A stretch of 64,000 nt of DNA. It comes from Candidatus Iainarchaeum sp. Its GTDB lineage: Archaea > Iainarchaeota > Iainarchaeia > Iainarchaeales > GCA-2688035. Under the pieces are notes generated by a model. That model had not been told where the DNA came from. It did no database searches and saw only the letters and a list, made by a program, of their open reading frames with translations. Shown here piece after piece: positions 3,786 to 40,153 of the stretch. The stretch covers positions 1-64,000 of the forward strand of contig JAFCCL010000009.1 of the NCBI GenBank assembly GCA_017610205.1, written 5' to 3'. Made by a program: the position numbers and the translations under genes. Numbering within the stretch: the stretch's first letter is position 1; the number at the start of each line of letters is the position of its first letter.

Positions 3786-3931
3786 GGGGAAAGCACAACC
3801 TATTTAAATAAGAAAACACTTTAGTCCTATAATTAAATGTGATGGGAATACGGTCGTATTTTTGTTATATAGATAGATTAATAAATAAAGAAATGAGAAA
3901 TAGTAACAGTGCTTAGGCAAGTGAATTGTTT

Positions 3932-6900
3932 ATGGCTTTGGGTGACTTTTACAAGGGAATTGAAGACAAGTACTATAATTTTGTTGACTGGCTTGACGGC
4001 AAGGGCTTAAACTTTTATCCGGTAATTGACAAAATTGAAGAGCACAATATTCCGTCGTTTCCAATTGCTGTTTTGGCACTTGTTCTAATAATTGCAGGAA
4101 TTGCAATTGGCATTAGCATGCTTGTAATTCCGCAAACAGGAATTACTTTTGCTGTTTTGGACGAAGACGGAATTGCTGTTGAAGGTGCACAAATTCTTGT
4201 TACAACAAATTCAGGCATAGAGCTTGGTGGCGTTACAGGAGTTGATGGAAGGGTAACAATTGTTATTCCGGCAGGAAGTGCTGAGGCTGAAATTTCAAAA
4301 GAAGGTTATGCAAACGAAATTGTTTCACTTGAAGTTTTGGGCATGACAGAGGAAGAGGTCTTGCTTAAAAGCGAAACCACGGTTTTGTCAAAAACAATTC
4401 AGCTTATGAAAAGCGGCACAAGCCAGCTTTTGGATGAGGACATTTCAGTAAGGTTTACTTGTTCTGACCCAGAGGCATCAGGCTTTGATGAAATAAAGGT
4501 TTCAAGCGGGGGCACAATTGCTCTTGATGTTCCAGGCAATTGCGGTTCACTTATTGCAACTCCTTTAACAGGTTACAGTGCACCAAACGGAGTAATTAGT
4601 TTGCAGGAAACTGCACCACAGCTTTTCTTACAGGCAGTTGAATCAAATACCGGAACAGTAAATGTTTTTGTTGAAACAGAGGAAGGAGAAGCACTTGCAG
4701 GAATTACGGTTATTGTTTACAGCCAGGACGGAATACAAAAAGGAACAAGTTATACAAGCGCTGCAGGAACTGCGGTCTTTGAAAGTATTCCAACAGGTTC
4801 GTATTATGTTATTGTACATGATTCACAGGGACATTATGCAGGATATGACAGCAGCACAGAGGGAGTTTTAGGAATAAAGGAACTTGTAAAGGATGGCAGC
4901 GTTTCTTTTAATGCAGAGCTTTCAGAGGCAACTGTTGGAACAATAAAGGCAATTGTAAAGGACAGTTCAACAAGCCTTCCAATTGAAAACGCTGCTGTTT
5001 ATCTTAAGAAGAACAATGCAACTGTTGACACAGCGTACACTGATTCAGAGGGAGTTGTTGAATTTAATGTTGGAGAAAATGTTGAATACTGTTTGGAGGT
5101 TGATTCAGGCGTTTACCTTATTGCAATTGTGAATAATGTTAGGGCAAGCCAGTCTTTTAATGAAATTTATCTTGAGGCAGCAACAGCTGGCAATACACAG
5201 GTTTTAAAGGTTGAAGTTGTTGACAACAGGCAGAAGCCAATTGATGGCGTTAGGCTTGTTTTGAAAAAGGCTGATGGGACAATTTATGCAAACAATGTTG
5301 TTACAGGAGCTGATGGAGTTGGCGAATTTACAAACCTTCCTTTGGAAACATACTATGTTTATGTTGTAAAAAAAGGTTTTGAGGGCAGGGACAGTGACCC
5401 AATAACACTTAGGTCAAGGCAGGAAAACAAAATAACGGTTGTTCTGCCAATTGGCTTTGGAAATTTAGAGGTATTGGTTTTGAATGACGAGTTGCAGCCA
5501 GTGCAGGGAGCGGTTATTGAGGCAATCAATGTTGTTGACGAAGAAAAGGAACAGGAAGCAATTACTGACCTTGATGGAAAGGCAATTTTTAATTTCAGGG
5601 CTGATAAAAAGGTTTTCTTTAAGGTTGATGCAGAAGAGTTTTTGCCATATTATAGCATTGCAGTAATGCCTGATGCAGACAGCACTGTGACAACAGAGAT
5701 ATTGCTTGCAAAAGACCCAGGGCAGGTAGAGGTAAAGCTTGTTGGAATGTATCTTGACGGAGAGGTTGCTCCAAAAGAGCTTGCTCCTGGACAAAAGTAT
5801 ACTGCAAGGCTTTTACTGCTTTTGCCAAAAAACAGCTATTTTGATGAAGCAGGATTGCATTTAAGAGTTGGAAATGCCAATGAAGGCAAGACAAATATTA
5901 TGGAGGAGGACAGTGTTTACATCAGGAATGTTATTGCGTCAACTGCAGGCATTTTGAGAGGAACAAGCTTTACTCCTCCAAGCGGTTATGCCATTGATTC
6001 AACACACCTTACAACAGGGGATAGCAAGTGGGCAAGCCTTGGTTGGAGTAATGCAGGGCAGGGAGCTTATGCTGTTGAAGCAGAAATTCAGGTAAAGGAT
6101 TCTGCACAACTTGGACAATTGTTGTATATTAATTACAGGGGATTTGGAAAGAAAGACACTTATACAAGATTCCCTGCAGACTCTGCACTTGGAGGAGCTG
6201 AGTCAACGGCTTCAAAGCAGGCGCTTTATGCAAATACAGAGCAGGAGGTTTATACTGCTGGCCCAAGCAGCCTTTGCGGAACCAGCTTTTGCAAGACTTT
6301 TGGAGTTGAGGACATTGTGCGCAATTTGAAGGTAGATGTGATTGACCAGTACAATGGAACTATTGGAACTGTTTACAGGCTGCATTTTACAATTACAAGC
6401 ATTGCAGAACAGGCGTTTACAAACAGCACTATTGAATTCGGAAGCCAGGGAGACGGCTTGAGGTTTGAAGATTATGCAATAACTGATGCCACAGGAAAAA
6501 GAAGCGAGGGCAGTGTTGAAGGATACTTGCTTTCAAAGGAAATTGGAACCATGAGCAAGGGAAGCAGTGTATTTGGGTTTGTTGATTTTAGAACGGAGAA
6601 AGAAGGAAGCAATCCGTTTACAATTGTAATAAAGTCAAACAGCCAGCCTGTTTTAAGCGAGGGAATTGACATAAGTGTTGAGGCAGCAGAGCAATTGCAG
6701 CTTGACGTTTTGCCAAAGGAAATAATTCCAATGATTGACAATCAGATTCTTGTAAGGGTAAGCGACGAAAGCGATGAGCCTGTAAGCAATGCAATTGTTA
6801 CTGCAACAATTGATGACGCAATAGTTGTTTCAACCGAAAGCAATGGCTTAGGAGTGATTGAGTTTAAGCTTGAGATGCCTGTTTCAGGAAGCGTGCTTGT

Positions 6901-9900
6901 GATTACTGCTGAAAAGACAGGGTATAAGGGAGCAGAGCTTGAGGAAAAAATTGACTCAAGCATTTTGACTGTTACACCGCCTGAAATAAATGAAAAGCTT
7001 GATGTTTTGCTGACAGAGGTTGAAAAGCAGATTTGGTTCAACAACCAGACTGTAACAGATTTGGTGATTTCAAAGCTAACGTTCAGCAGCGACTTTGAAG
7101 GCCTTGTTTCTTTTGAGTGGGATGAGGATTATATTGGTGAAGGAATTAATGCTGATACAGACATGAATGTGTTCCTGTTGATTGGATTAACAGAACAGGG
7201 AACTCTTGTGGAAACACCTGTAAAGTTGGAGGGTTCTTTGTCAATTTATTTGCTTAGTGCAGAATTGCAGGAAACCTTTGTGGAAAATTTGCCCATAGAA
7301 ATAAGAATAGGGCTTGGAGGAGAAGCAGACAGTGACGATTGCATTGAAATTGTTCCGGTAAAGTGGGATATTACAACATCTGCAGACGGAGCAATAACTG
7401 AAGAATTTTCAATAAAGAACAATTGTACTGTTGAAAATCAGGAAATTGCCCTTTCAAAACTTGAAGCCAAAGTAATTAATGGAAGCAGCGATTCACTTGG
7501 CCAGTTCAAAATAAGCAGTGATGATTTGGAAATTTCTTCAATAGTAATTGGAGAAGAATACACTTCACTTGCAGACCTGTTGCCGGTTGGGTTTGAAGGA
7601 GAACTTCAGATAGAATTTGTTCCAACTTCAACAATTGAATCAGGAACAGCAAAGCCAAAAATTGAATTCAAGGCAGTGCATCCAATAGTTGAAGGCGAGG
7701 AAAAAATTTCAGTAAAGCTTCCTGTTGAAATAAGTGTAAGCAATCTTGAAAAATGCATTGAGGTTATTGCAGACGAACCAATTGAGGTTGAAACAACTCC
7801 AATGAACACCGGATTTGGACAGTATGGAAATTATGGCGGAAGCTATAATCCAGGTTATCAGGGCGGTTACGGTGGCTACGGAGGATACAGCAGCATTCCA
7901 GGAGTTGGTGGAGGATATAGCAATTCTGGTTACGGGGGAATGACAGGCGGTTACGGAGGAAGCAGTTATGGCAGAAGCAGTGGTTATTATGGCGGAAGTG
8001 CATATCCTTACTCTAATTTTAGTTCACCTTATTACACAAACTATTATGATACTGACCATGATAATTCCTGGAAATACGGCCTTGGAGAAAACAGTTTTAT
8101 TGTCAAAAACAATTGTTCAGAGGCAGTTGAAATAGACATTGATGTTCCTGCACAAATCAGGGTAGACGAAGAAAATTTTGAGATTTTGCCAAATTCAGAT
8201 ACTAGAGTAAGGGTTGAATCAGGATACAGAATGGGCAAATATGAAGTTGATATTATGGCAAAAAGAAAAGGAAGCCTTGATAAGGCTTTGAAAATTGAGT
8301 CACTTGACGTTATTGTAAGAAGAGCAGGAGAAATGGACGAGGAATGCCTTCAGCTTAGCACAAACAAAATAAAGCTCAACAATTTTATAGGCAAGCCAGT
8401 AAAAACAGAAATATACAATTACTGTTATGATGTAGGAGTAAGGCTTCCAAGCGGCGGCAATATAATAGACTTTACCTGCAAGGTTGCAGGACAGCCGCAG
8501 AACACTTACAGGTTTGAAGGAAAAGAGGAAACAACTGCTTACTTCCAATACCAACAGTATGGCTACAATGACCCTTTTGCACAGCCAAGCTCTTACATAA
8601 ATCAGCCTCCTGGAAACTATGGGGGGGAAACTTTCCTTCCAACAGGGCCTTATGGCCCAAGCTATGGAAATGCCATTAGTTCAAGCCAGGGATACAATTA
8701 CCCTTATGGAAGCAGCCCTTACGGCAGCAACAACTGGGCTCAAAACCAGGTTGGAGGCTACACAGGCAGGTGTGAATTGATTGACTCTGTTTACGTTACA
8801 GATGAACACACAAGCGGAATGGACGATGGAAAAACAATCCAGACAGTAGAATTTGAAATAAAGCCTGCGTTAAATTATAGAAAAATGTTATGCGAATTCC
8901 AGGGCCAGATGCCGTTTCAAAGCATTTTTGGACTAAGAGTAATGCTAAGCCAGGCTTATTACAGGGTTTATGTTGATGCCTCAGCAAATGTCAAATACTA
9001 CAATCCGTTTGGAAGTGCAACAAACAAGTATTTCCACGTGACTTTGGAGGATATGTGGGGAATTGGCGACACACTTGACGAATGCATGCGCAATGCAGGC
9101 ATTGCAGGAATATCTGCCCAAAGGCTTCAAAAATGCAGGGAAGCAGGAAGCACTGCACCAATAATCTCGGTTGTGAATACCGCTGGTCTTGATTTTTCAA
9201 GAAAAGGATACCAAAAAGGCTTTGTTCCACAGGGCTTGTTTAATGCAAATGATGTTTATGAATATACTGCAGACCCTGATGTTTTGAATATTCCACCTGC
9301 TTCAGGAAAGGCAAGCATTGTTGAAATAATTCCGCGCGAAATAGTGCACGAAAGCGGTGTAAGAATTTCGTTTGAGACAGTTAAAACAGAGTGTCCTGCA
9401 CCATACCCTGGGGGAAATTGGACAATTAAAATGAACATTGACAGGTCAGGCATGGATGAAAGCATTGGCTGTGCAATAATTAACAACCAAATTGCCATAA
9501 AGGTTTCAAGGCCAATGTTTTGGGAAAGCCCAAAAGAAACAATTTTACCGGTAAGAGTTAACGTGCTTAACAGAAATGAAAGCATAGACAGTGTAGACCC
9601 AACCACCTGCAGCACGCCGGGTTCGATTACACCAACAAGTGTAAGGTGTGCAGCAGGCGGAGTATCAGGAAAAGGAACTAATGAAAAGTATGGCTTTGAC
9701 AGGCTTCCGTTTGACTGGATCTGGAACGGAATTGACATACAGCAATGTGATGAAAAAACAAACGGCGGAAAGGAAAGCTTTTGTGACGGAGTACAGTTCT
9801 CAATTGAATTGAACAAAAAGGCAGAAAAAGTAAAAGAGTTTGTCACAGAAAACAAGGCAATTATTGACGATTACGCAGAATTCACAGGCGTTGCAAAGGA

Positions 9901-11806
9901 GTCAAAAAATCTTTACAGGCTTGTAAAAAAGCAGATAAAGGTAAAAAGCCAGCCAATCGGAGTTGCAGATGACAAGGCAGTTGAAACAATATTCTACTTA
10001 AAGGCAGACAATGAAATTCTTGAAACTGAAAACAAGAAAAGCATAACAGACAAGCTCAAGAACCTTAAGAGCATGACCAAAGACGTAACTGAAAATAACA
10101 TGTATTCCATTGCAACACAAACTGTTAAGACACTAAATGCCATTTCATCGGAAGACAGGAAAAGGACTGTTGCAGTTGTAAGCAAAAGCTTTGCAGAAGA
10201 TTCAGAAAATGAGGATGTTGCTGAATTTGTTGGAGTAAGCAAGCCCGCAACCGGAGAAGGAGCAGTGTTTGACAAATATGTTTTTACACTTGACGAATAC
10301 AAAGCGTTTAATGAAAAGCTGGTTGACGCGCTTGGAACTCAGGGCAAATGCTCTAAGTACAATGAAGATGGAGTGTTAGAGGAAATTGATGTTACAGACG
10401 ACGATGACAAAAAGCTTGCTGTTATGTGTGAAATTACAGGCGGTGAACAGTCAGGTGGCGGGGCAAAAGAGGAATTTGTAAGCAACATTTTCCTTCAAAA
10501 CCTGTCCAATGCAATTAAGGCAGGTGGATTTATTGTAGGAGCAGTTTCAGAAGAAGGAAATGAAAATGACGGCGTTAAATATATAGTTAGCAATGCAAAA
10601 GATGCAAGCGGCTTGAAAAAGGTTGGGGGCAACAGTGACTTTAAAGCCTTTTACAATAAGGATGTTGACTTTGTTTCATTCCTTATAAAAGACGGTTACA
10701 ACAGCAGTTTGAGAACAGACTTTACTGCATTTTATACAAACGAGTCATTTGGAGAAACATCTGTGTCAAAGGCAACTTTGGAGGAAACAAAATACGGAAC
10801 AGGAAACTGGAAATTTGGAAACATAGGGCAGGAAAGTAAGGAATCATATTCTTTGGGAACATCAGGCCAGTACAGGATTTTGCTTGGTTTAAACTTTGCT
10901 GATGAGGACAACCTTGAATGGAATATTGGTTTTGAAAGAGAAAAAGTTCTTAAAGAAATTAAACCAGAATTTGAAAACAATTACATGTTAAGCATGCCGT
11001 TTGACGGAGAAATAGGGCTTGCTGCAGGCAGCGGAAGGGACGGATACGGTGTTCTTTTAACAGGCAACAAAAGCATACTGCTTGAGTATGATAATGATAA
11101 CACAGCAAAAAAAGCAACAGAGATTACAAAGCCAGCAACGGAAAACACAGGCAGTGCATTTGAACAATACAGTTTGCAAACTTCCAACGCACTTTCAGTA
11201 ACAAATACAGGGGTTGTGTTTAAGGTTATTGGAAGCACAATAACAAGCAATCCTTCAAAGCCTGCAAGAGTAAATCTGGAGCTTAACAAAAGAAGCGGTG
11301 CAGGAAACGAAGGACTGGTATACAATTTGGTTGAAGGCGGTTTTGGTACAGGATTAATTGGAGACCTTAACCCATGGTTTGTATGGCAGGAAGGCGAAAA
11401 AACCTTTTCAGACCAGGTTCTTTCAAGACCAATTTCACAAACACTTTGCCGCGAAATTGGCACAGCCGGCTACCACGGGTTTGTACAGGAAATCGGAACA
11501 AAAACAAATTTTAAAGGCCTTGTAATTCTTCCGTTTGAAAAAGAATATGTACTGCAACTTATCTGCAATCAGGGAAGCATTGGAAGTGCAACTGCACTAA
11601 ATACTATTTCTGCAAATGCAGGGTGGAGAGCAGGCACAAGCAACCAGCTTACCCTTAACACAAACACCGACACTTACAGCAGCAGCCTTGAGTACTTTGT
11701 TGAAAGCATTGACAATGGAAAGATGTGTTTTACACCAGGGCAGAATGGAATTACCCTGAATTGGAACAAGGAATACCTGCTTTCAAATGTTGGCACAAAC
11801 CAGTGA
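3932..11806 (+). CDS. Giant membrane-anchored surface protein 1 (carboxypeptidase-regulatory-like/Ig-like repeats, Gly/Tyr-rich inserts, conserved C-terminal domain)
   Basis: N-terminal TM helix (PSFPIAVLALVLIIAGIAIGI) and repeated V.V.D..G.P(I/V)..A.V...T..dG units; paralog of the next two ORFs; ATG 3932 preferred over TTG 3926. Confidence 0.85.
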   Translation: MALGDFYKGIEDKYYNFVDWLDGKGLNFYPVIDKIEEHNIPSFPIAVLALVLIIAGIAIGISMLVIPQTGITFAVLDEDGIAVEGAQILVTTNSGIELGGVTGVDGRVTIVIPAGSAEAEISKEGYANEIVSLEVLGMTEEEVLLKSETTVLSKTIQLMKSGTSQLLDEDISVRFTCSDPEASGFDEIKVSSGGTIALDVPGNCGSLIATPLTGYSAPNGVISLQETAPQLFLQAVESNTGTVNVFVETEEGEALAGITVIVYSQDGIQKGTSYTSAAGTAVFESIPTGSYYVIVHDSQGHYAGYDSSTEGVLGIKELVKDGSVSFNAELSEATVGTIKAIVKDSSTSLPIENAAVYLKKNNATVDTAYTDSEGVVEFNVGENVEYCLEVDSGVYLIAIVNNVRASQSFNEIYLEAATAGNTQVLKVEVVDNRQKPIDGVRLVLKKADGTIYANNVVTGADGVGEFTNLPLETYYVYVVKKGFEGRDSDPITLRSRQENKITVVLPIGFGNLEVLVLNDELQPVQGAVIEAINVVDEEKEQEAITDLDGKAIFNFRADKKVFFKVDAEEFLPYYSIAVMPDADSTVTTEILLAKDPGQVEVKLVGMYLDGEVAPKELAPGQKYTARLLLLLPKNSYFDEAGLHLRVGNANEGKTNIMEEDSVYIRNVIASTAGILRGTSFTPPSGYAIDSTHLTTGDSKWASLGWSNAGQGAYAVEAEIQVKDSAQLGQLLYINYRGFGKKDTYTRFPADSALGGAESTASKQALYANTEQEVYTAGPSSLCGTSFCKTFGVEDIVRNLKVDVIDQYNGTIGTVYRLHFTITSIAEQAFTNSTIEFGSQGDGLRFEDYAITDATGKRSEGSVEGYLLSKEIGTMSKGSSVFGFVDFRTEKEGSNPFTIVIKSNSQPVLSEGIDISVEAAEQLQLDVLPKEIIPMIDNQILVRVSDESDEPVSNAIVTATIDDAIVVSTESNGLGVIEFKLEMPVSGSVLVITAEKTGYKGAELEEKIDSSILTVTPPEINEKLDVLLTEVEKQIWFNNQTVTDLVISKLTFSSDFEGLVSFEWDEDYIGEGINADTDMNVFLLIGLTEQGTLVETPVKLEGSLSIYLLSAELQETFVENLPIEIRIGLGGEADSDDCIEIVPVKWDITTSADGAITEEFSIKNNCTVENQEIALSKLEAKVINGSSDSLGQFKISSDDLEISSIVIGEEYTSLADLLPVGFEGELQIEFVPTSTIESGTAKPKIEFKAVHPIVEGEEKISVKLPVEISVSNLEKCIEVIADEPIEVETTPMNTGFGQYGNYGGSYNPGYQGGYGGYGGYSSIPGVGGGYSNSGYGGMTGGYGGSSYGRSSGYYGGSAYPYSNFSSPYYTNYYDTDHDNSWKYGLGENSFIVKNNCSEAVEIDIDVPAQIRVDEENFEILPNSDTRVRVESGYRMGKYEVDIMAKRKGSLDKALKIESLDVIVRRAGEMDEECLQLSTNKIKLNNFIGKPVKTEIYNYCYDVGVRLPSGGNIIDFTCKVAGQPQNTYRFEGKEETTAYFQYQQYGYNDPFAQPSSYINQPPGNYGGETFLPTGPYGPSYGNAISSSQGYNYPYGSSPYGSNNWAQNQVGGYTGRCELIDSVYVTDEHTSGMDDGKTIQTVEFEIKPALNYRKMLCEFQGQMPFQSIFGLRVMLSQAYYRVYVDASANVKYYNPFGSATNKYFHVTLEDMWGIGDTLDECMRNAGIAGISAQRLQKCREAGSTAPIISVVNTAGLDFSRKGYQKGFVPQGLFNANDVYEYTADPDVLNIPPASGKASIVEIIPREIVHESGVRISFETVKTECPAPYPGGNWTIKMNIDRSGMDESIGCAIINNQIAIKVSRPMFWESPKETILPVRVNVLNRNESIDSVDPTTCSTPGSITPTSVRCAAGGVSGKGTNEKYGFDRLPFDWIWNGIDIQQCDEKTNGGKESFCDGVQFSIELNKKAEKVKEFVTENKAIIDDYAEFTGVAKESKNLYRLVKKQIKVKSQPIGVADDKAVETIFYLKADNEILETENKKSITDKLKNLKSMTKDVTENNMYSIATQTVKTLNAISSEDRKRTVAVVSKSFAEDSENEDVAEFVGVSKPATGEGAVFDKYVFTLDEYKAFNEKLVDALGTQGKCSKYNEDGVLEEIDVTDDDDKKLAVMCEITGGEQSGGGAKEEFVSNIFLQNLSNAIKAGGFIVGAVSEEGNENDGVKYIVSNAKDASGLKKVGGNSDFKAFYNKDVDFVSFLIKDGYNSSLRTDFTAFYTNESFGETSVSKATLEETKYGTGNWKFGNIGQESKESYSLGTSGQYRILLGLNFADEDNLEWNIGFEREKVLKEIKPEFENNYMLSMPFDGEIGLAAGSGRDGYGVLLTGNKSILLEYDNDNTAKKATEITKPATENTGSAFEQYSLQTSNALSVTNTGVVFKVIGSTITSNPSKPARVNLELNKRSGAGNEGLVYNLVEGGFGTGLIGDLNPWFVWQEGEKTFSDQVLSRPISQTLCREIGTAGYHGFVQEIGTKTNFKGLVILPFEKEYVLQLICNQGSIGSATALNTISANAGWRAGTSNQLTLNTNTDTYSSSLEYFVESIDNGKMCFTPGQNGITLNWNKEYLLSNVGTNQ

Positions 11807-19221: not shown

Positions 19222-22200
19222 ATGGGTTTGAAAGAATTTTACTTAAAAGCAGAGGACAAGTGGTATGATGTTCTCGACAGGATAGATGCACACATACCTG
19301 TTTACAAAATTGTTGACAAAATAGATACAGCAGTACCAAGCTTTGCACTTTTTGTCGGAGTTGTTGTATTGCTTGCAGTTGCATTTGTTGTGCTTAATCT
19401 GAATTTTGCAGGAGGAGTAAGCCTTACTGTAACAATAGAGGATGCTGGCGGAAATTTGCTTGAAGGGGTTTCATTTGATTACACTGTTGGCAACAGCATT
19501 AATTCCGCAGTTACCAATAAGGATGGAAAGGCAGTTATTTTTGTTCCTGCAAATTCAACAGTTGAAATAATGGTTCCTGTGGCAAATGTTGACGGAGTTG
19601 TGTTTGAAGAGGCAAAGAAAACTATTTTTGTTGAAGATTTTGAAATATCTGAAAGTATTGTGTTAATGGAGGAAAGCCCTGCTTTTGTTGAAAGGACAAT
19701 TCTTTTCCAAAATGGTGCAGGTGAAAGGATTACCGGAAGGGCAATAAGGGTAAGGCTTAGCTGTGAAAACCCTTTGGTTTCCCCAAGCCCTCTTGAGGTA
19801 TCAGACCTTGACTTTGATGGAAGCATTACTGTAAAGGAGCCAAGGGATTGTGGAATATTCCAGGCAACTGTTTTGGAGCCTGAAGAATTCAGTCAAAAAA
19901 GATATATTTTAAATCAGGGAACGCAAACTCTGAGGCTTGAGGCATTGCCTGTTGCAAAAGGAACAGCCAGAATAAAAATAAAGGACTCTGGCGGAAATCT
20001 TGTGCTTTCAAACAATTTTAATGTAAAGCTTTTGGATTCAGATGGGCTTAAGGCAGCTGAAAAATATTCACAAAATTATGGAGAAGTTATTTTTTCAAAT
20101 ATTACGGCAGGAATTTATAGCGTTGTTGTAGAGGATGTTTCAGGAGATTATGGAATTGCAAACCAGTCAGGAATTAGTGTAAGCGTTGATGAAATCACAT
20201 CTGTTAATGTTACTGTAGGCAAAAGCATAAAGGTTACTCTTAATGTTTCGGTTGTTGAAAAGGAAACAGGAAATGAAATTACAGGCGTGACTTTGAAAGT
20301 AATTGATTTGGATGGCAAAACAATTGCGGAAAAAAGCACTGGTGAAGAAAACACCACTGTATTCAGGCTTACTGAAGACACAGGCCATCAGTTGTTTGCA
20401 GTGCACAATGATTACCTTTATGAAATTGTTAATTTGCCAAGTGCAGGAACATTGGATATTGAAGTTGAAATGGAAAAGATTACGGCTTCAAACAGCGGAA
20501 GGGTGGAAGTTAAAGTTGTTGACGAGGACAATTTTCCTGTAAAAAATGCAAGGGTTAAGCTTCGTTTTTTGGATACTGGAATGCTTGTTCCAATTGAGCC
20601 TGAAATGACTGACAGCAATGGTTTTGCAGGTTTTGCAGGAGTAAAGTCAGGGAGTTATTATGCTTATGTTGAAAAATATCCTGCTTCAGGCGACAACCAA
20701 AGTCAGGGAATGGAAATTGACATAAGGACTGTTACAAAATTCACAGTGGTAATGATTATTGGTGACAGTGTTGTACAGGTAAATGCATTTGATGAAGACT
20801 TATTGCCTGTTGCAGAGGCCGAAGCCGAATTTTTTGCCCTTTCAGGAGAAAGTTTGGGAAAGATTCCTTTAACTGACGGCACAGGGCAGTTTGACCTTAA
20901 GGCAGACAAAATGGTTTTTGTGGTTGTAACCCATTCCGATTTTATGGCTATTCAGGCAATGCCAAAACAGCTTTGGCCAAATGAAATTATACATTTTGAT
21001 GCTTTAATGGAACCAAAGCTTATTCTTGGAGAGCCAGAGCTTGAATTTGCCGGAATTTTTGACGAAACAGGAATTCAGGTTCAGGAAATGAATGCAGGAA
21101 AACGGTATATTGCAAAATTCAAGCTAAGCATTCCGGAAAGCGGGGATTATGGCAATGGAGGCATTCATTTTAGGGTAGGTGACGAGCGATTTTTGATAAA
21201 TGACCCCCTTGTAATAAAGGAAGCTGTTGCAGGCGGTATTGAAGAGCAGTTAAAGGGAACATCCTATAGCCCCCCAGCAGGCTATGATGAAGACCTGCAA
21301 AATGTTACTGTAGGGGATGCAAAATGGGCTAATATATTCTGGAACCAGCTTGAGCCAATGAATTATTATGTTGGCTTTGAAGTAAGGGTAAAAAGCCAGA
21401 TTACGCCTTATACAAGGCTTCCAATGCATTACAGGGCATGGGCTGTTAATGGAAGCAGGCAGTATATTAGAACCCCTGAGGATTCAGAGCTTGGGTTTTC
21501 TGAAAGCGTGTCAGGAAAGCAAAGCCTTTATGCAAAGACAAGGGATATTGCATTTTTGGAGGGACAGGCAGCAGAATGCCAGGAAGACTTTTGCTACAGT
21601 GGGGAAAGCATTCTTGATGAGGACCTTGGATTGTATATTTATAAACCATATGAGATGAGGGCAGGCAGTCCGCACAATTACACTTTCAGCATACTAAACA
21701 ACAGCGAACGCCAATACAGCAATAGCGAATTATACATAACTGTTGATGGGATTACTATTGATTCTTACGCAATACAAAATGCTTCAGCGCAGGAAATAAG
21801 CAATGTTGGAATTTCAACCAAAGAAATTGAGGCAATTAATTTAGGCACTTTTACAAAGGGCAAAAGTGTTTCAGGAAATGTTCATTTTACGCCAAACACA
21901 ATCGGGCTTGGAGAAATTGAGGTAAAGGTTATTGCCGACGGACGGGTTGTATTTCAAAAAAGCATTTTTGCCTCAATCCTTTCGGAAAACGAGATGGTTA
22001 TTGCAGCAAGCCCTGCGCATATTCCGTCATATGTTGCAACAGCGCTTGAAATTTCAATTTATGACCCGGTATATGAGTATGATATTGACGAGGCATTTGT
22101 AAGGGTTAATGTGAAAAATCCTGACAAGACAGAATTGTTTTACACTGCAACAACAAACGGTTTTGGAAAAGCAATAATTGATTTGCCTGCACTTGACCCA

Positions 22201-25200
22201 AGAACTGTTATAATTATTGAGGCTGAAAAGCCGGATTATTTTGCAAACCCTTTGGAGCTTGTTGTGGACTCAAATATACTTCGCTTTGAGCCCCCAAAAG
22301 TAGAGACCTTAATGGAAACAAGGGGGGCACGGGAACAGCTTTTTAATGAAAGGATTGAAAACACAACCGGCCTTGAAGTTGAAATCAAAAATGTTTCGCT
22401 TACAGGAAGGTTTAATGGGTTGCTTGACAGGCAAACAATGGAAAATTACTCAAAGCAGTTTATTGGAACAAAAATAAAAGCAAACGATTATGAAACATTT
22501 CAATTCTTTAAAACAAGGCTTTCAGAAAACATTGAATCAATTGCCCTTGGAAATGAAACATTATACGGCGAATATATTGTTACCTCGTACAATGAAGAAA
22601 CAGGAATTGAGTGGGATACAATTATTCCGTTGGAAGTTGCAATAAAAATAAGCAACTTGCCAGACAATGCACCCTGCATTGTAATCACAAGGCAGGAATG
22701 GTTAGGTTCAACACAGGAAAACAGGTCAACAATTGAATTCCAGGTTCAAAACAACTGCATTACTGGCGGGAGAGCGTCAGAACTTGACAGCCTTCAGGCA
22801 AAACTTTCATGGAATTCTGACATAATGGGCCAGGTTGAATTAAGCTTAACAGACCCTGAAAGCGGGCAAACCAATACCGAAACATTGAAGCCTGAAATGC
22901 GGACAAAAATCATTTCAGGGATAAGACCTGAAAGCACATTTTACGGAATGCTTACATTTACTCCAATGTCAGGATTTTTGGGAAAGGACGCAGTATTCTC
23001 AGTTGGCATTGACGGAGCAATCAAAACAAGTGCAGGGAAATCATTTGTAGGCTCAACACCAAACGAGATTTCATCAAGCATTAGAATAATTAACTTAAAT
23101 CAGTGCATACAATACCCTGGAGCAGAAGACATAATTGAAATGTCTGGAGACACAGCAAACTTTACTGTTGACACAAGCCAGTGCGGAGAGATTTCAATTG
23201 ACATAGAATTGTGCCAAAACGACACTGAATGCAGGAGCGGAACATCAGAGGGAGGCATTACAGTAACACCAACACAGTTTACTCTTAATGCAACTAATCC
23301 GGCAAAGGAAGTGCTTGTTGCAAGGCAAAGTATGGCAGGAATGTATGGAATTCATGTTTCGGCAAAAACACCTGGAAAAAGCTATAGAAAAGTTGCTTTA
23401 ATAGATGTACTTGTAAAGCCAGAGGGAGATGAGACATTTACTTTGGACAAATATGCATTTACTTTGGTGGGCACAGGAAGCCAGGACAACGCAACCCTTA
23501 CAAACAAGGATTTGGCAGAAACAATCAGTGTTGATGCAAGTGCATGTGACTGGGGAACAGCAGAAGAGAAAGGAATGTTTGATTTGGCAGGAGCAGGAAT
23601 GGGCGCGGCAGTAGGAGCAATAGTGGGAATGCAAAATGCAGCAAAGGCAACAAGTGCAGCAAGCCAGGCAATAAGTCTTGCAAGAACCGGGAATTTGACA
23701 GGCGCGGAAAGTGCGGTTAGCCACGCAAACCAGTTAACAAACGCTGCAAGCACAGCTGGAGACGCAGCACAACTTGCATCACAAACAGCCAGACAGGAAG
23801 CAATAACCACTGCAGCTGCTGCTACAAAAGCAGCTTTAACTGCAACAAATGCAATACTTCCACCTTGCGGAACAGCTGTTAAGGCAACTGTTATAGCTGC
23901 CAACAGCAAAATGGCAAGCGTTGAAACAACAGCCAATGGAACTTTTTGGGCAAAGGTTGGAAGAGCACTAAGCACTGTTGGACGAGGGGTTTCAAACATT
24001 GGCAGCGCTGTTGCAAGTGTTGGAAAGGCAAAAAATACAGCCACGCCAAGCAGTACAGGAATGGTAAGCGAGGGACCTTACAACTCGCAGGCAGACCTTG
24101 ACAACGCTATTAGTAGTACAGAATCGGCGTCTGCAGACTTGACTGAAACAGGAACAGAGTGGGGTACAAGCCTTACAGAGTCACAGGCAATGGCTGCCGA
24201 GCTTAAAGTTATTGTAGGAGAACTTGGAACAGCACAGGCTGAAATGGCTGAAGCACATACATGCTGTGGTTTTTGCAGCCCTGGACCGTGTTGCATTGCA
24301 CAAAGCACTGCAGCAGATATAGCTATAGAGGATGCTATAATTACTGTGGACAATGCAGTTGTAGCTGTAGAAGCTGCATCGGCAGAAATAACAGGCGCAC
24401 AAACTGCAGCAAATAATGCAGCTTCAGGTTTGACAACTGCAAACCAGTCTCTTGTACAGGCAAAAAGCTCAATGGGCAGTCTTGGAAATACCATGGCTAC
24501 AGCAGGAAAGGCAGCAGGGTCAGGAGGCACTAATTGGGGAACTCTTGGAACTTATGCTGCTTTGGGAGCTGTTGCAGGCGGTTTGTTGGGAGGAGTTATG
24601 GGAGAGGATCCATGCGCTCAAAGAGTTACCGGAAGCCTGATGGATTATATGATTAATTTGAAGGATGATGCACAGCCAATTTCTGTTGACAATGAACTTA
24701 TTTCAGGATGGTGGAATACTGATGACGCAAAGGTCTTTGGCAATTACAGCAGCCAGGAAGTAGGGCTTTACTTTGAGAACATGGGTTTGGAGGAAAGCAA
24801 TGCCATTTACGGTGTTGTAAGCCTTCCTGCTGAAAGGCATTATCATGCAAATCCTACAATGGCTTCAGGGTCAGGATTTGGGCCGTTTAATGTTCCAGAC
24901 CAAAGCCAGGAAAGTTATGCTCAAAAATTCCATTTGAAGTTTGTTACATCGCCGTCAACATCAAAAATTGAGCTTTTGCCACAGGAAACATACAGTTGTT
25001 TGCAGGGAAGCCTGTTTGGACAAACAGGAGCAGGAGCATTGCCTGATGTAAAACTCAACTGGAGTTGGGGTGAAACAACAGGAATTGCAATGGATGACTG
25101 TGATTACTATAATGAAAATGGAATTTACTGTGATGCAACCCAGTTTAGCATTGCATTGACAAAGAAAATGCAGAGTTTAAGGGAATTCCTTGAAGCAAAT

Positions 25201-26703
25201 CAGCAGATTTCATGCCCTGTAAATCCATCACTAACAGACATTGAAGAAATTACAGAAGAATTCCATGCAGAACTTGAAGAACTTGGAATGGACCCATTGC
25301 AGTTGTATTATCCAGGCTGCTGGATGCCTTTGTCTACAACGCTTTGGGATGGACAGCCGGTATTGCTTTACTTTGTGGAGGAGGCGGCTGAAAACAATAA
25401 TGTGAACTGGACAAGCAATGTACAGGATTTGGGAGATTTGAAGAATTTAATAAGCTTTAAAGCAAGGCTGATAAAAGACGGTTATAGTGAAGACTTCCAG
25501 AATGACTTTGCAGAATTTTACACAACACAATCATTTTACGATTCTCCAAATTACTTTGGAGAAGATGGTGCAGGAAAGTGGTCTGATTACTTTGAAGATA
25601 CTGAAAATTTAAGGTTTAAGCAGAAGTTTGTTGAAAATACTTCTTTGCCTGATGCAGGAGTTTACAATGTTCTTGTAAATGCAGGCTTTAACTCAGAAAA
25701 CTGGGAGTTCTTTGATGCAGACGGAAACCCTGATGCAGTGGTTGTTGTTGAATTCCTGTTTCTTGGTGAGCCATACCCTAACAGTGTGTTTTATTACCTT
25801 CCGTTTAATGGAAATGTTGGTGTTGATTCAGGAAATGGAAGAAATGGCTATGGTGTAGATTATGTAAACAGTGCAGAGCCAATTGCAATTGCAAGCAGTC
25901 CTGAAATGGTTTCAACAAGGGAAATTTACGGAAGCAATCCTGTTGCAGAAGCCAATATTGAGGTTGTTTCGGATTTTAAGACAATTAATTCCATTGCTTC
26001 AAAGCGTGGGTTTTTGCTTGAATTAGAGGGCTCTGATTTGGCTACTGTAAAAAACATTTCGTTCTATCCAAATTATGCCACTCCTGTAATTATGAAGATT
26101 CCGCATGAAAAAACAAATGAAAGCTTTAGTGCATTTTATGAAATAAAGGAAAGCCAGACACCTGTTGAGGCAGGTACAAGCCTTAGCTTTTGGACAGGAG
26201 CAGGGCAATGCCTTGATTTTTCAGGCCAGCCTGTTTATGAGGCATTTAGATTTAAGCCAGACAGGTCAGCAACACAAAATGACCCTCTTTCAGATTGGCT
26301 GTTTGCATATGCAACAGACTGGGACAGTGCAATTTTTGAAGGAGATGTTTACCTCAAAGCAGTGTTTTATTCACCTATTACAGGAAACTTTAACCTTAAG
26401 TCATTGCAGCCGTCTGGACTGCAGTTTATTTCACCTGATTCGCTTGAATCCAATTCCGTTGATTTGCACGGAATTGCAGGAATGCAGCATAACAGTGGTA
26501 GTGCACAGGATATTGTAAGCGAAGTTCAGGAAATTTTTGACTTGGTTGAAGGCCAGAATGTTTGCGTTACAGACACTGGTTCAAAAACCTCGTTTTGGTG
26601 GAATCCAAAGGCTTTGAATGATGCTGTTGGAAGCAAAACAAGCATTTCAAACTTTGAGTCAAATCTTGTTGAAGGAAGCACCTGTATAGGGTATGGAAGC
26701 TAA
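19222..26703 (+). CDS. Giant membrane-anchored surface protein 3 (same scaffold; ~355 aa Ala-rich helical insert flanked by glycine zippers)
   Basis: Same N- and C-terminal motifs; insert GAGMGAAVGAIVG...GAVAGGLLGGVMG. Confidence 0.85.
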   Translation: MGLKEFYLKAEDKWYDVLDRIDAHIPVYKIVDKIDTAVPSFALFVGVVVLLAVAFVVLNLNFAGGVSLTVTIEDAGGNLLEGVSFDYTVGNSINSAVTNKDGKAVIFVPANSTVEIMVPVANVDGVVFEEAKKTIFVEDFEISESIVLMEESPAFVERTILFQNGAGERITGRAIRVRLSCENPLVSPSPLEVSDLDFDGSITVKEPRDCGIFQATVLEPEEFSQKRYILNQGTQTLRLEALPVAKGTARIKIKDSGGNLVLSNNFNVKLLDSDGLKAAEKYSQNYGEVIFSNITAGIYSVVVEDVSGDYGIANQSGISVSVDEITSVNVTVGKSIKVTLNVSVVEKETGNEITGVTLKVIDLDGKTIAEKSTGEENTTVFRLTEDTGHQLFAVHNDYLYEIVNLPSAGTLDIEVEMEKITASNSGRVEVKVVDEDNFPVKNARVKLRFLDTGMLVPIEPEMTDSNGFAGFAGVKSGSYYAYVEKYPASGDNQSQGMEIDIRTVTKFTVVMIIGDSVVQVNAFDEDLLPVAEAEAEFFALSGESLGKIPLTDGTGQFDLKADKMVFVVVTHSDFMAIQAMPKQLWPNEIIHFDALMEPKLILGEPELEFAGIFDETGIQVQEMNAGKRYIAKFKLSIPESGDYGNGGIHFRVGDERFLINDPLVIKEAVAGGIEEQLKGTSYSPPAGYDEDLQNVTVGDAKWANIFWNQLEPMNYYVGFEVRVKSQITPYTRLPMHYRAWAVNGSRQYIRTPEDSELGFSESVSGKQSLYAKTRDIAFLEGQAAECQEDFCYSGESILDEDLGLYIYKPYEMRAGSPHNYTFSILNNSERQYSNSELYITVDGITIDSYAIQNASAQEISNVGISTKEIEAINLGTFTKGKSVSGNVHFTPNTIGLGEIEVKVIADGRVVFQKSIFASILSENEMVIAASPAHIPSYVATALEISIYDPVYEYDIDEAFVRVNVKNPDKTELFYTATTNGFGKAIIDLPALDPRTVIIIEAEKPDYFANPLELVVDSNILRFEPPKVETLMETRGAREQLFNERIENTTGLEVEIKNVSLTGRFNGLLDRQTMENYSKQFIGTKIKANDYETFQFFKTRLSENIESIALGNETLYGEYIVTSYNEETGIEWDTIIPLEVAIKISNLPDNAPCIVITRQEWLGSTQENRSTIEFQVQNNCITGGRASELDSLQAKLSWNSDIMGQVELSLTDPESGQTNTETLKPEMRTKIISGIRPESTFYGMLTFTPMSGFLGKDAVFSVGIDGAIKTSAGKSFVGSTPNEISSSIRIINLNQCIQYPGAEDIIEMSGDTANFTVDTSQCGEISIDIELCQNDTECRSGTSEGGITVTPTQFTLNATNPAKEVLVARQSMAGMYGIHVSAKTPGKSYRKVALIDVLVKPEGDETFTLDKYAFTLVGTGSQDNATLTNKDLAETISVDASACDWGTAEEKGMFDLAGAGMGAAVGAIVGMQNAAKATSAASQAISLARTGNLTGAESAVSHANQLTNAASTAGDAAQLASQTARQEAITTAAAATKAALTATNAILPPCGTAVKATVIAANSKMASVETTANGTFWAKVGRALSTVGRGVSNIGSAVASVGKAKNTATPSSTGMVSEGPYNSQADLDNAISSTESASADLTETGTEWGTSLTESQAMAAELKVIVGELGTAQAEMAEAHTCCGFCSPGPCCIAQSTAADIAIEDAIITVDNAVVAVEAASAEITGAQTAANNAASGLTTANQSLVQAKSSMGSLGNTMATAGKAAGSGGTNWGTLGTYAALGAVAGGLLGGVMGEDPCAQRVTGSLMDYMINLKDDAQPISVDNELISGWWNTDDAKVFGNYSSQEVGLYFENMGLEESNAIYGVVSLPAERHYHANPTMASGSGFGPFNVPDQSQESYAQKFHLKFVTSPSTSKIELLPQETYSCLQGSLFGQTGAGALPDVKLNWSWGETTGIAMDDCDYYNENGIYCDATQFSIALTKKMQSLREFLEANQQISCPVNPSLTDIEEITEEFHAELEELGMDPLQLYYPGCWMPLSTTLWDGQPVLLYFVEEAAENNNVNWTSNVQDLGDLKNLISFKARLIKDGYSEDFQNDFAEFYTTQSFYDSPNYFGEDGAGKWSDYFEDTENLRFKQKFVENTSLPDAGVYNVLVNAGFNSENWEFFDADGNPDAVVVVEFLFLGEPYPNSVFYYLPFNGNVGVDSGNGRNGYGVDYVNSAEPIAIASSPEMVSTREIYGSNPVAEANIEVVSDFKTINSIASKRGFLLELEGSDLATVKNISFYPNYATPVIMKIPHEKTNESFSAFYEIKESQTPVEAGTSLSFWTGAGQCLDFSGQPVYEAFRFKPDRSATQNDPLSDWLFAYATDWDSAIFEGDVYLKAVFYSPITGNFNLKSLQPSGLQFISPDSLESNSVDLHGIAGMQHNSGSAQDIVSEVQEIFDLVEGQNVCVTDTGSKTSFWWNPKALNDAVGSKTSISNFESNLVEGSTCIGYGS

Positions 26704-26751: not shown

Positions 26752-27168
26752 ATGGTCTTTGAAATAATGCCACTAATGTTTGCTTTGCTTTCAATAGGCG
26801 AATTTTTTTCAGACATGGTTTTTGTGCTTAAAATATTTGTGCTGTTAACCATTATTTCGTGGGTTATAATGCATTTGGGAAAAGGGCCTTTGGCAATTGT
26901 TTTAATTGTTGGAATTTCGTGGTTTGTGTTGTTTGATGCCTTTTGGTTTTTTGGAGGAACATATGTTTTGATGATGCTTTTGACTCTTGGTATTGCAGGC
27001 ATTTTCATAGATTTGTTCTTTGTATTCCCAGGGTTTGCTGCAGGAGCAGGAGGTTCAGGCGGTCTTCCTGCTGAGGCAAAGATGAGCAGCCAGGGTGGGG
27101 TAAACCAGAGAATGCAGGCTTTCAAAGCAAAACCAGGCAGAGCCAGAAAGCTTCCTCCGCCAATGTAG
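26752..27168 (+). CDS. Small multi-pass membrane protein
   Basis: Several hydrophobic helices, HLGKGPLAIVLIVGISWF segment, Gly/Pro-rich basic tail. Confidence 0.75.
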   Translation: MVFEIMPLMFALLSIGEFFSDMVFVLKIFVLLTIISWVIMHLGKGPLAIVLIVGISWFVLFDAFWFFGGTYVLMMLLTLGIAGIFIDLFFVFPGFAAGAGGSGGLPAEAKMSSQGGVNQRMQAFKAKPGRARKLPPPM

Positions 27169-27186
27169 AAAAAAAAATGTACAATA

Positions 27187-27558
27187 ATGGGATTGTGTGT
27201 AAAGATGTTTGGAAACAGGTTTTTGGAATTAAATCAGCAGGGAATGCTGCAGATTTTTATTTTGATTGTAATAGCTCTGGTGGTTGTTGTTACAATTCCT
27301 GTTCTGGTAATGAAAGTTTTTCCTGCAGCAGATTGGATTATGCGAATTATTCTTATTTTCTTAATTTTTACAACAGTAAGAGGCTACTTGGGGTCGGGAA
27401 TTCCAACAATTCTTGTAACAGGTGTTTTGATATATTTTCTGGTAATTAAGTGGGCATACTTTACTGCCGCCGTATATATTGCGGTTTATTTCCTGCTTGC
27501 ATTGCAGGTGTTCAGCATAATTATTTTTGGAATTGGAATGGGAATGAGAAAAGGGTAA
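27187..27558 (+). CDS. Small multi-pass membrane protein
   Basis: About four hydrophobic helices; YLGSGIPTILVTGVLIYF resembles segments in its neighbours; start uncertain (27187/27205/27244). Confidence 0.75.
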   Translation: MGLCVKMFGNRFLELNQQGMLQIFILIVIALVVVVTIPVLVMKVFPAADWIMRIILIFLIFTTVRGYLGSGIPTILVTGVLIYFLVIKWAYFTAAVYIAVYFLLALQVFSIIIFGIGMGMRKG

Positions 27559-27666
27559 AGCAATGGAATTAAAATGGAAAAAGTGCAACGCGCCCATTTT
27601 ACTCCACTACAAATGCAAAAAGGTAGGTTTAATAAGCAAGAAATGGCATAATTTTTATATAGGCGT

Positions 27667-27915
27667 TTGAAAATGGCAATGGATCCCTTAATTCAAAATA
27701 TTGAAATAGTGCTTTCACTGTTCTACCTTGTGTGGATTTATGGATGGGCAAAAAAGAATCTTGGAAGCCCAAAGCTTGCAATCCTTTTTGCAGTAATTGT
27801 AGTATACCTTACATTCTTCCAGTTCCCGCAGCTTATCTGGATTCCTGTGCTGATATTCATTTTTGCAGTGTTTGGAAAAGGGTTTTTTGAAAAATTTAAC
27901 ATTTACAAAAAATAA
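27667..27915 (+). CDS. Small membrane protein
   Basis: NLGSPKLAILFAVIVVYLTF motif similar to the two preceding ORFs. Confidence 0.75.
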   Translation: MKMAMDPLIQNIEIVLSLFYLVWIYGWAKKNLGSPKLAILFAVIVVYLTFFQFPQLIWIPVLIFIFAVFGKGFFEKFNIYKK

Positions 27916-28062
27916 AACTAAAAAAATAAAAAAAAATGCAATTGAAAAAAAAATTCATTCATACAAAAAAATGCAATTTACAAAAATTGCCAATTGAAAA
28001 AAAAATGCAATTGAGAGAATTGACAATTGCAGCAATAAAAAAATAAAACAGAAGGGGAAAAA

Positions 28063-28371
28063 ATGGATACTTTTACTTTCATGATTGCCATCATTTTCAT
28101 GATGATGGCTGTTCAATTCAACCAGTATTGGCTGATTTTTGCAATTGTTGCCCTGATGGTTCTTTCAATGAGGGATTTGACTACAACAATACTTTTGATT
28201 ATTGCAACAGTCGTTCTTCTTTTTGGCAGAGAATATTTGACAGATTACTGGCCGTTTGTACTGTTTGGATTAATAATCTTAAGCCTTATAATTGGAGGAA
28301 AACAAAAGGCTGAACAGCCACCGGACATGTTTGGCGGAGACATGGGCGGAATAGGCTTTGGAGGATTTTAA
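28063..28371 (+). CDS. Small multi-pass membrane protein with Gly-rich tail
   Basis: Hydrophobic throughout; GGGG RBS-like motif upstream. Confidence 0.75.
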   Translation: MDTFTFMIAIIFMMMAVQFNQYWLIFAIVALMVLSMRDLTTTILLIIATVVLLFGREYLTDYWPFVLFGLIILSLIIGGKQKAEQPPDMFGGDMGGIGFGGF

Positions 28372-28373
28372 AA

Positions 28374-28736
28374 TTGCTTGCAATAATTCTTGCCCTAATA
28401 GCAGCAGGGCTTTTCTTTATCCTTATTAATCAGGGCTTTTTGGCAATATTGTGCATTATTGCAGCAGTAATTATGGGAATTGCCAACTTCTTTAAAGGAA
28501 CGAAAAGTGCTGTAAAAAAAGTCGGAAAAGGCGGAACAAGAGGAATGTGGAAAGATTTTCAGGAAGCTGAAACAGGACACCCTGATAAAGCAATTTTGGA
28601 CGACGCTGTTTCAGGCACAGGGCAAATTACTGGACAGGAAATGGGGTCGCCTGACAGCCACAAGTTTAAAACAACTGGTTCAATTGAAGGCGCTGCCGTC
28701 AAAATAATTGAAACATTCAAAAAAGCATTTAAGTAA
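28374..28736 (+). CDS. Small membrane protein (two TM helices plus soluble tail)
   Basis: Two N-terminal hydrophobic helices; 2 nt downstream of the previous stop. Confidence 0.7.
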   Translation: MLAIILALIAAGLFFILINQGFLAILCIIAAVIMGIANFFKGTKSAVKKVGKGGTRGMWKDFQEAETGHPDKAILDDAVSGTGQITGQEMGSPDSHKFKTTGSIEGAAVKIIETFKKAFK

Positions 28737-40120: not shown

Positions 40121-40153
40121 ACCGTCTAGGAAAAAATACTATATTCTTTGTTT

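Follow-up and report, generated by a model that had tools for sequence, protein, structure and literature searches.

The region considered here is a 64,000-nucleotide (nt) stretch of contig JAFCCL010000009.1 from a Candidatus Iainarchaeum genome, referred to below as the window. Within it lie three tandem genes for giant proteins (g1, g2 and g3), and the subject of this report is an insert in the middle of the third. The layout of g3 comprises an N-terminal signal-anchor, Ig-like/CarboxypepD_reg domains, the central insert and then a 695-amino-acid (aa) C-terminal region. The insert is predicted to fold into a four-helix bundle, and the two glycine zippers that bracket it appear to be the separated halves of a hairpin which occupies the same junction in relatives of g3. 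The features of the gene and its insert are listed below, with hydrophobicity given as the maximum over Kyte-Doolittle windows of 19 residues (KD19) and with helices taken from AlphaFold2 (AF2) models and their predicted local distance difference test scores (pLDDT).

19222..26703, plus strand: giant protein 3 (g3), an open reading frame (ORF) of 2,493 aa with Pfam domains PF13620/PF17802; six orthologs found
19318..19437, plus strand: N-terminal hydrophobic anchor of g3, aa 33-72; KD19 maximum 3.0
23545..23547, plus strand: C1442, first half of a cysteine clasp at the base of the insert; invariant in 7/7 orthologs
23584..23631, plus strand: zipper 1, aa 1455-1470, ladder G1457/1461/1465/1469; KD19 maximum 1.51, pLDDT ~76-86 in the large model
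23632..23850, plus strand: bundle helix 1, aa 1471-1543; AF2, pLDDT >90
23851..23871, plus strand: distal turn 1 with PPCG (C1549); AF2, Cys in 6/7 orthologs
23872..24039, plus strand: bundle helix 2, aa 1551-1606; AF2, its C-terminal part being the basic, Gly-rich, amphipathic FWAK segment, level with the zippers
23944-24003, plus strand: FWAK segment FWAKVGRALSTVGRGVSNIG, aa 1575-1594, inside bundle helix 2
24070..24267, plus strand: bundle helix 3, aa 1617-1682; AF2
24262..24294, plus strand: distal Cys-rich turn CCGFCSPGPCC, aa 1681-1691; C1682 and C1691 invariant
24295..24522, plus strand: bundle helix 4, aa 1692-1767; AF2
24526..24603, plus strand: zipper-2 helix, aa 1769-1794, ladder G1782/1786/1790/1794; KD19 maximum 1.49
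24613..24615, plus strand: C1798 in a DPC motif, second half of the cysteine clasp; invariant in 7/7 orthologs, co-varies with C1442

A first-pass annotation, made from the letters alone, had described an Ala/Thr/Ser-rich helical region of ~355 aa at this place, and every motif that it named was located. ACDW lies at aa 1441-1444 and DPCA at aa 1796-1799, and the insert between the two clasp cysteines (aa 1442-1798, 357 aa) contains 80 Ala, 41 Gly, 40 Thr and 32 Ser, or 54% A/T/S/G. Zipper motif 1 is GAGMGAAVGAIVG (aa 1457-1469, nt 23590-23628) and zipper motif 2 is GAVAGGLLGGVMG (aa 1782-1794, nt 24565-24603). These are the only GxxxGxxxGxxxG ladders in the entire protein. A pair of windows of this kind, Gly-rich and uncharged, came up in 103 of 20,000 shuffled inserts, which makes it more than a chance feature. 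Hydrophobicity was assessed with simple scales (Kyte-Doolittle windows, KD17 or KD19), on which the zippers fall slightly below the classical mark of 1.6. Outside the zippers, windows with a KD19 of at least 1.2 occur only at aa 1697-1724, where they hold D/E, and the bundle helices display Ala/Thr/Ser faces and no greasy face. The FWAK segment, singled out by the same annotation as an amphipathic helix, has a hydrophobic moment in the top 0.3% of the 20-aa windows of g3.

Two AF2 runs were made, the first on aa 1395-1860 with a 7-row alignment and the second on aa 1301-2493 with a 46-row alignment (mean pLDDT 90.6, predicted TM-score 0.76). Helices at aa 1462-1469, 1471-1543, 1551-1606, 1617-1682, 1692-1767 and 1769-1790 are present in both models, and the four long bundle helices exceed a pLDDT of 90 in both. 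Zipper 1 continues into bundle helix 1, while zipper 2 forms a separate 22-residue helix after helix 4. With high model confidence, the insert is therefore predicted to be a single-chain antiparallel four-helix bundle built from two hairpins, which the chain enters and leaves via the zipper helices. In the models the PPCG turn and the Cys-rich turn come together at the far end, and both zippers and the FWAK stretch lie together at the near end, where the zippers would form a collar; from helix lengths of 56-76 residues the rod would measure roughly 10 nm. The CCGFCSPGPCC turn does link two long helices, as first described, namely the third and the fourth. The corresponding description of the region as a helical hairpin applies to that half of the structure; the whole is a bundle of two hairpins with the zippers at its base. 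The idea of a membrane-penetrating tip fits poorly, as the hydrophobic parts are found at the base of the rod and the far end consists of Cys/Pro/Gly turns. A simple low-complexity linker was also considered and rejected, because the fold is confident and the ladders are invariant.

Conservation of the insert is highly uneven. Identity across the six orthologs is 36-61% over the insert, and in 50-aa windows it is 62-70% in the flanks and 33-45% in the insert interior. The ladder glycines, C1442, C1798, C1682 and C1691 are nevertheless invariant in 7/7 orthologs. The zippers, whose loss from orthologs the first-pass annotation had named as counting against its membrane hypothesis, have thus been retained throughout; the number of cysteines in the CCGFCSPGPCC turn varies. 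In comparison with the closest ortholog, from the same genus, aa identity is 83% in the N-terminal part, 49% in the bundle and 84% in the C-terminal part. The nonsynonymous divergence (dN) of the same three parts is 0.096, 0.434 and 0.092, and the synonymous divergence (dS) is 0.57, 0.99 and 0.48; dN in the bundle interior is ~4.6x that of the flanks. By these comparisons the bundle is a fast-diverging cassette. The pattern is as expected for an exposed, possibly recombining or exchanged cassette, and the raised dS hints that bundles may be swapped among near-identical strains. The orthologs come from metagenome-assembled genomes (MAGs) labelled Candidatus Iainarchaeum or Diapherotrites; two clear orthologs (L001 and L002) lie on contigs of MAGs labelled Chloroflexi and Thaumarchaeota, probably through mis-binning.

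The two clasp cysteines also behave as a unit in more distant sequences. Across 46 family rows both C1442 and C1798 are present in 30 and both are absent in eight, and in five of the six rows scored as having the first cysteine only, a Cys lies 1-3 residues off the aligned column. Rows without both cysteines mostly have polar or Met-rich brackets. This co-varying pair closes off the insert at its base, towards the body of the protein.

The junction in which the insert sits can be followed through a large family. A search of 1.84 billion representatives with a profile of aa 1395-1860 yielded 118 proteins at E <= 1e-3; the majority are 2,200-2,650 aa long, and many match in the flanks only. Junction contents were excised between two small flank hidden Markov models, both of which matched in 71/125 sequences. 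The counts that follow cover proteins of at least 2,000 aa plus four fragments, set apart from a ~1,200-1,900-aa group (N-flank match near residue 500) and two inserts of <40 aa, and they include kin that are not independent of one another. So filtered, the inserts comprise 15 short forms (50-76 aa), 29 long forms (at least 250 aa) and one of 176 aa.

The short forms consist of two hydrophobic Gly-rich helices joined by a tight turn and nothing else. The second helix has a median KD17 of 2.58 (at least 2.2 in 14/15), and the hairpins of relatives reach 3.16. Given the established behaviour of the translocon, such a hairpin is too greasy to pass without lodging in the cell's own membrane, and would thus be a second membrane anchor in those relatives. 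Short-hairpin relatives (P0020, P0039, P0069, P0080 and P0098) often carry a CPxC motif (CPPC, CPAC, CPVC, CAPC) where the second hydrophobic helix begins, possibly a redox or metal site in the turn of the hairpin.

The long forms are bracketed by weaker segments, with a median KD17 of 1.34 and a maximum of 1.93 (1.28-1.68 in the g3 orthologs), and both brackets are below 1.0 in 3/29. The brackets are therefore weaker exactly where independent insertion would demand stronger ones. In four of the 15 long inserts inspected, a KD of 1.3 is not reached in any 19-aa window, yet 6-8 Cys are retained; having no hydrophobic segment, such inserts must lie on the ectodomain side. Between the brackets, the fillings differ wholesale: Ala/Thr/Ser bundles (g3-like), Gln/Ser-rich, Lys/Glu-rich with Met/Pro-rich brackets, Pro/Gly-rich (g2) and Gly/Tyr-rich (g1). 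One subgroup of relatives (P0026, P0029, P0041, P0063, P0070 and P0090) carries a Lys/Glu-rich coiled-coil filling of 388-857 aa, in which Met/Pro/Leu-rich brackets replace the glycine zippers. The long inserts of P0012 and P0016 include a third, proline-flanked hydrophobic segment in mid-filling (KD19 2.1-2.3), at a position expected to be back at collar level. In a FastTree phylogeny of the flanks alone, short and long forms are interspersed, and P0020, which has a 61-aa hairpin, is sister to the g3 group (support 93).

The conservation of the zippers and cysteines, the fast divergence of the bundle, and the presence of a hairpin or of other fillings at the junction in relatives together lead to a split-hairpin reading. 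On sequence grounds, what is conserved at the junction is a hairpin of two glycine-zipper helices, and the version in g3 is split, with a folded bundle in its loop; the g3 zippers would correspond to the family's membrane-grade hairpin, and the bundle to a swappable loop filling. Among the closest known counterparts are the glycine zipper 2TM (SlyB/Pcp-type), Gly-zipper_Omp (PF13488) and Gly-zipper_YMGG (PF13441) families, which share the arrangement of two weakly hydrophobic Gly/Ala-rich GxxxG-ladder helices pairing as a hairpin. The glycine-zipper domain of SlyB forms a transmembrane helical hairpin, according to PMC12955049. The bare hairpin of relative P0073 matches PF13441 at a sub-threshold level (E 0.0023, 18 bits vs a cut-off of 28.9) and PF13488 at E 0.08; it is the only one of seven relatives scanned that matches PF13441, and g3 itself matches no Gly-zipper Pfam model even at E <= 10. 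The helices of g3 are 312 residues apart with the four-helix bundle between them, whereas they are adjacent in the 15 short-insert relatives. Moreover, the g3 zippers sit mid-chain in an archaeal protein of 2,493 aa, and the SlyB type is a small bacterial lipoprotein.

Since the zippers occupy the site of the relatives' membrane-grade hairpin, contact with the membrane can reasonably be inferred, and the insert is probably a surface or membrane-contact module. The account that we favour, tentatively and at rather less than even probability, is that of a rod, exported and exposed, whose hydrophobic collar does not span the membrane. Everything beyond the N-terminal signal-anchor would be exported, and the loop of the split hairpin would have expanded into a rod with small-residue, "Alacoil"-like packing, which would fold outside the cell as an exposed, variable mast with a likely role in recognition, spacing or antigenic variation. 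The zippers would pair by their glycine faces into a thin collar, and the variable Leu/Ile/Val/Met face of the collar would be buried, together with the FWAK helix, at the membrane surface or against neighbouring copies. Such a collar would be no pore; it would be a weakened version of the second membrane anchor of the family, one that stops short of spanning.

The main competitor of the exported rod, which we consider rather unlikely, holds that the zippers are a true transmembrane hairpin, a second anchor in the cell's own membrane, from which the bundle would project ~10 nm into the cytoplasm. Its Cys tip would then be metal-binding, and the bundle could be a scaffold or a signalling rod coupled to the ectodomains. 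The strength of the brackets speaks for the exported rod: the zippers reach a KD19 of only 1.49-1.51 against 3.0 in the N-terminal anchor of g3, and helices 312 aa apart would each need to halt or restart translocation unaided, for which they are probably too weakly hydrophobic, so that the rod would fold outside. The relatives with long Cys-bearing inserts that lack any hydrophobic segment point the same way, as does the low charge of the insert: 11% of its residues are charged, whereas the mean in windows of soluble ORFs of the genome is 28.6% and 1/1,292 is as low. The rapid divergence of the bundle relative to its ectodomain flanks would also be unusual for a cytoplasmic domain.

Several observations weigh against the exported rod, some of them in favour of a spanning hairpin. 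The charges follow the positive-inside pattern: summed over the seven orthologs, the flanks of the collar carry 8 K+R against 57 D+E towards the body and 20 K+R against 8 D+E towards the bundle. The zippers are uncharged over ~20 residues, and their Gly face is invariant while the other face varies among I/L/V/M/F, like that of lipid-facing helices. Relatives including the sister P0020 bear membrane-grade hairpins at the junction, and the g3 form would evolve most simply if a domain were inserted into the loop on the cytoplasmic side. In addition, an exported collar has ~12 exposed large hydrophobic side chains that need a burial partner. The composition of the insert is an outlier with respect to both compartments, not just the cytoplasm, the mean charge in windows of the giant ectodomains being 22% (0/353 as low). 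Searched at whole-library size, a profile restricted to the bundle interior (aa 1475-1770) retrieved only the close orthologs P0001-P0009 and no link to other long inserts. The spanning hairpin is further consistent with the basic amphipathic helix level with the collar, with the continuity of zipper 1 and bundle helix 1, and with the further mid-loop hydrophobic segment of P0012 and P0016. N-glycosylation sequons number 3 in the insert (3.4 expected) and 27 in the rest of the ectodomain (19 expected), numbers too small to assign the insert to either side.

The geometry of the collar also bears on a purely structural neck with no membrane role, in which the GxxxG ladders would serve close packing and the hydrophobic face would rest on the protein's own body or in a homo-oligomer. 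Three Gly-rich helices (zipper 1, the end of helix 2 and zipper 2) meet at the proximal end of the bundle, the pLDDT of the collar rises from <50 to 76-87 once the body and a deeper alignment are included, and some relatives have polar brackets. The neck is nonetheless improbable, because the hairpins of relatives at the same junction are far too hydrophobic for it, the asymmetry of charge over the collar is left unexplained, and the hydrophobic face varies freely among I/L/V/M/F, unlike a fixed packed core.

Structural comparison addresses another proposal of the first-pass annotation, a likeness to pore-formers, translocators or fusogens. Foldseek searches against the PDB, the check suggested there for alpha-pore-forming toxin and translocator folds, returned no match at E <= 1e-3 for either model. 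With TM-scores of 0.2-0.4, the leading entries were AhlC, ClyA, AhlB, Hbl-B, TTYH, a receptor from a trypanosome and inner proteins of cilia, and the large model retrieved generic Ig-like folds and the same helical bundles only. In an exhaustive VIA-align search, a designed four-helix protein came top (Z 15.6), followed by the AhlB pore (15.2), HblL1 (13.3) and TTYH3 (13.0); the program itself cautions that helical bundles attain Z ~13 through arrangement alone. We read these matches as meaning "long four-helix bundle", not kinship. Sequence-based searches yielded no relationship: Pfam at E <= 10 gave chance-level rows for the insert and no toxin, translocator or Gly-zipper family, the best hit of the insert profile among PDB chains was the EmrA coiled coil (E 0.017), and an ESM Atlas feature search gave a top score of 0.77 to unnamed clusters and no lead.

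Among the structural matches, the ClyA-family alpha-pore-forming toxins deserve separate mention, as they share long antiparallel helical bundles of similar length and account for 11 of the 38 highest-ranking rows in the VIA-align search. The pore form of AhlB aligns over 223 residues (rmsd, root-mean-square deviation, 3.2), and further Z-scores are 12.4 for SmhA, 12.3 for Hbl-B, 12.1 for MakE and Cry6Aa, 11.8 for MakA, 11.7 for AhlC, 10.4 for XaxA, 10.2 for PaxB and 9.7 for NheA. However, the g3 insert has no hydrophobic head, tongue or hairpin at its far end; its greasy segments are basal and tethered on both sides. There is also no sequence relationship, and the Foldseek matches to these toxins are at E 2e-3 or worse.

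A latent membrane-active device, whether alpha-pore-former, translocator or class-I-fusion-like, would open on contact and drive its Gly/Ala-rich segments into the membrane of a partner. The invariant, moderately hydrophobic Gly/Ala-rich segments that adjoin long helices favour it, and so do the matches to ClyA-family toxins given above. In several toxins, glycine zippers drive membrane insertion and pore formation (PMC12955049), and the genome is small and of DPANN type, a related Diapherotrite having been inferred to be host-dependent (10.1101/249516). We regard the device as distinctly improbable. The likeness is generic, with the designed bundle outscoring all toxins, the faces of the helices are Ala/Thr/Ser, and the family is near-universal and multi-copy in its order. 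The 312-aa folded bundle between the zippers and their tethering at both ends to large folded parts would prevent entry into a foreign membrane as a spanning hairpin; the zippers could rest on such a membrane, not span it.

The same topology separates the insert from two other membrane-active systems. In translocators of the type III secretion system (T3SS; IpaB/SipB/YopB type), two adjacent central transmembrane helices are flanked by coiled coils, whereas the two hydrophobic helices of g3 lie 312 aa from each other and themselves enclose the helical region. No T3SS gene context was found among the neighbours of g3, which are small membrane ORFs, a 504-aa ORF and a family-B polymerase gene (PolB). 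Class I viral fusion subunits (gp41-type) resemble the insert in the order of their parts: first a hydrophobic segment rich in Gly/Ala, then two long helices joined by a chain reversal that contains Cys, and last a second hydrophobic segment, with both hydrophobic parts at one end of the bundle, and single-chain HR1/HR2 mimics (HR, heptad repeat) are among the VIA-align matches (Z 11.0-11.8). They are, however, trimers of hairpins with a free fusion peptide and a terminal anchor, whereas the g3 bundle is modelled as a single chain with both hydrophobic segments internal and leading into large domains; no evidence for a metastable pre-fusion state was found in the g3 insert. A contact-triggered variant, in which the hypervariable rod would recognise a partner cell, splay, and free the zippers and the FWAK helix to wedge like fusion peptides into the partner's membrane or into both membranes, is a long shot.

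The extracellular domain of TTYH (Tweety homologue) offers a comparison of a different kind. In TTYH a four-helix bundle continues directly from membrane helices and its far end is stapled by disulfides. Foldseek aligns 363-394 columns (TM-score 0.36-0.40, normalised by target length), and the VIA-align score is that given above for TTYH3. All four bundle helices of TTYH run into transmembrane helices, whereas only the first and the last could do so in g3, and the two share no sequence similarity. The TTYH bundle is known to be extracellular; that of g3 may lie on either side of the membrane.

The occurrence of the family argues against the injection apparatus of which the insert had been proposed to form part. 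The g3-type C-terminal region is present in 174/201 sampled genomes of the phylum at E <= 1e-10, and in 55/58 high-quality genomes. All of these belong to the same order, usually with several matches per genome, and no match was found in 19 genomes from five families outside that order. A protein so distributed looks like core envelope equipment. In keeping with membership of a giant surface protein family, g3 has a signal-anchor with a conserved leader, an Ig-like/CarboxypepD_reg array, the junction flanks and a C-terminal part of ~700 aa.

Two paralogs precede g3 in the window, both identified by BLASTP and by their sequence.

3926..11806, plus strand: paralog g1, 2,626 aa
12019..19173, plus strand: paralog g2, 2,384 aa

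The three tandem giants share a leader motif with a strong hydrophobic anchor (KD19 ~3.0) and CarboxypepD_reg/SpaA-type Ig-like domains. By BLASTP they are alignable over approximately the first 1,200-1,450 residues and over parts C-terminal to the insert, and the middle is not alignable. The junction of g2 consists of two weaker Gly-rich hydrophobic segments flanking a ~140-aa Pro/Gly/Ser-rich filling. That of g1 contains Gly/Tyr-rich low-complexity sequence and additional domains, without a hydrophobic hairpin; Gly/Tyr/Ser-rich, GYGGY-like runs at window positions 7810-8050 (aa ~1296-1375) and ~8600-8730 are followed by extra Cys-containing domains. Two further paralogs, of 2,285 and 2,825 aa, lie on other contigs (C19 and C12), and the hydrophobic hairpin was not found in them. 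The bracketed insert therefore occurs among the five paralogs only in g3 and, weakly, in g2. The genome is small and of DPANN type (1.37 Mb in 24 contigs, 92% complete), and the five giants of 2,626, 2,384, 2,493, 2,285 and 2,825 aa amount to ~12,600 codons, or ~2.8% of the 1.37-Mb genome.

A comparable set has been described in the Diapherotrite Ca. Forterrea, whose small DPANN genome encodes five membrane-anchored proteins of >1,800 aa within a single 42-kb region; a role in cell-cell interaction has been proposed for them (10.1101/249516, a preprint by Probst and Banfield). The likeness to the five paralogs of 2,285-2,825 aa found here, three of them in tandem, is one of description, and the accessible part of that preprint does not mention a mid-protein hairpin, glycine zippers or a helical insert. 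No description of the junction was found in the literature searched on DPANN giant, surface and large proteins and on glycine zippers in DPANN.

Downstream of the giants, at window positions 26752-30862, lie five small polytopic membrane ORFs (82-138 aa) and the 504-aa ORF. A Pfam scan of these gave no usable match, so that no "apparatus" is definable. At two loci of relatives (L004 and L005), compared by ORF size and order, a g3-type giant likewise stands behind another giant, and downstream of it come ORFs of ~130 aa and an ORF of ~500 aa, in that order; in L004 an 809-aa ORF takes the place that corresponds to PolB here. Archaeal genes in the window include PolB and TrmB. Elsewhere in the window, a tRNA-Arg (gcg) is directly followed by a tyrosine-integrase gene and then several unassigned ORFs (40153-41465), which may be an integrated element. 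A RelA/SpoT-type protein with HD_4, RelA_SpoT and TGS domains is encoded in this archaeal genome at 52328-53779 on the minus strand. A predicted tRNA-Leu (46608-46691) falls within the 5' end of a HAD hydrolase ORF (46580-47380), so that the true start of the latter is probably farther downstream.

DPANN archaea devote a striking share of their very small genomes to giant surface proteins. We know of no account of how these proteins work, or of how such cells hold or tap their partners. The present analysis defines a junction in a near-universal family of one order, at which membrane-grade glycine-zipper hairpins alternate with hairpins into whose loop a swappable and fast-evolving module has been set, and one such module now has a confident predicted fold. 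It also tempers the label of "pore-forming toxin", which fold searches give to any long helical bundle. Outside the cell, the bundle would be an exposed mast for recognition; inside, it would be a rod coupled across the membrane. If the contact-triggered device were true, it would provide the first molecular handle on the cytoplasmic bridges that extend from such archaea to their hosts.

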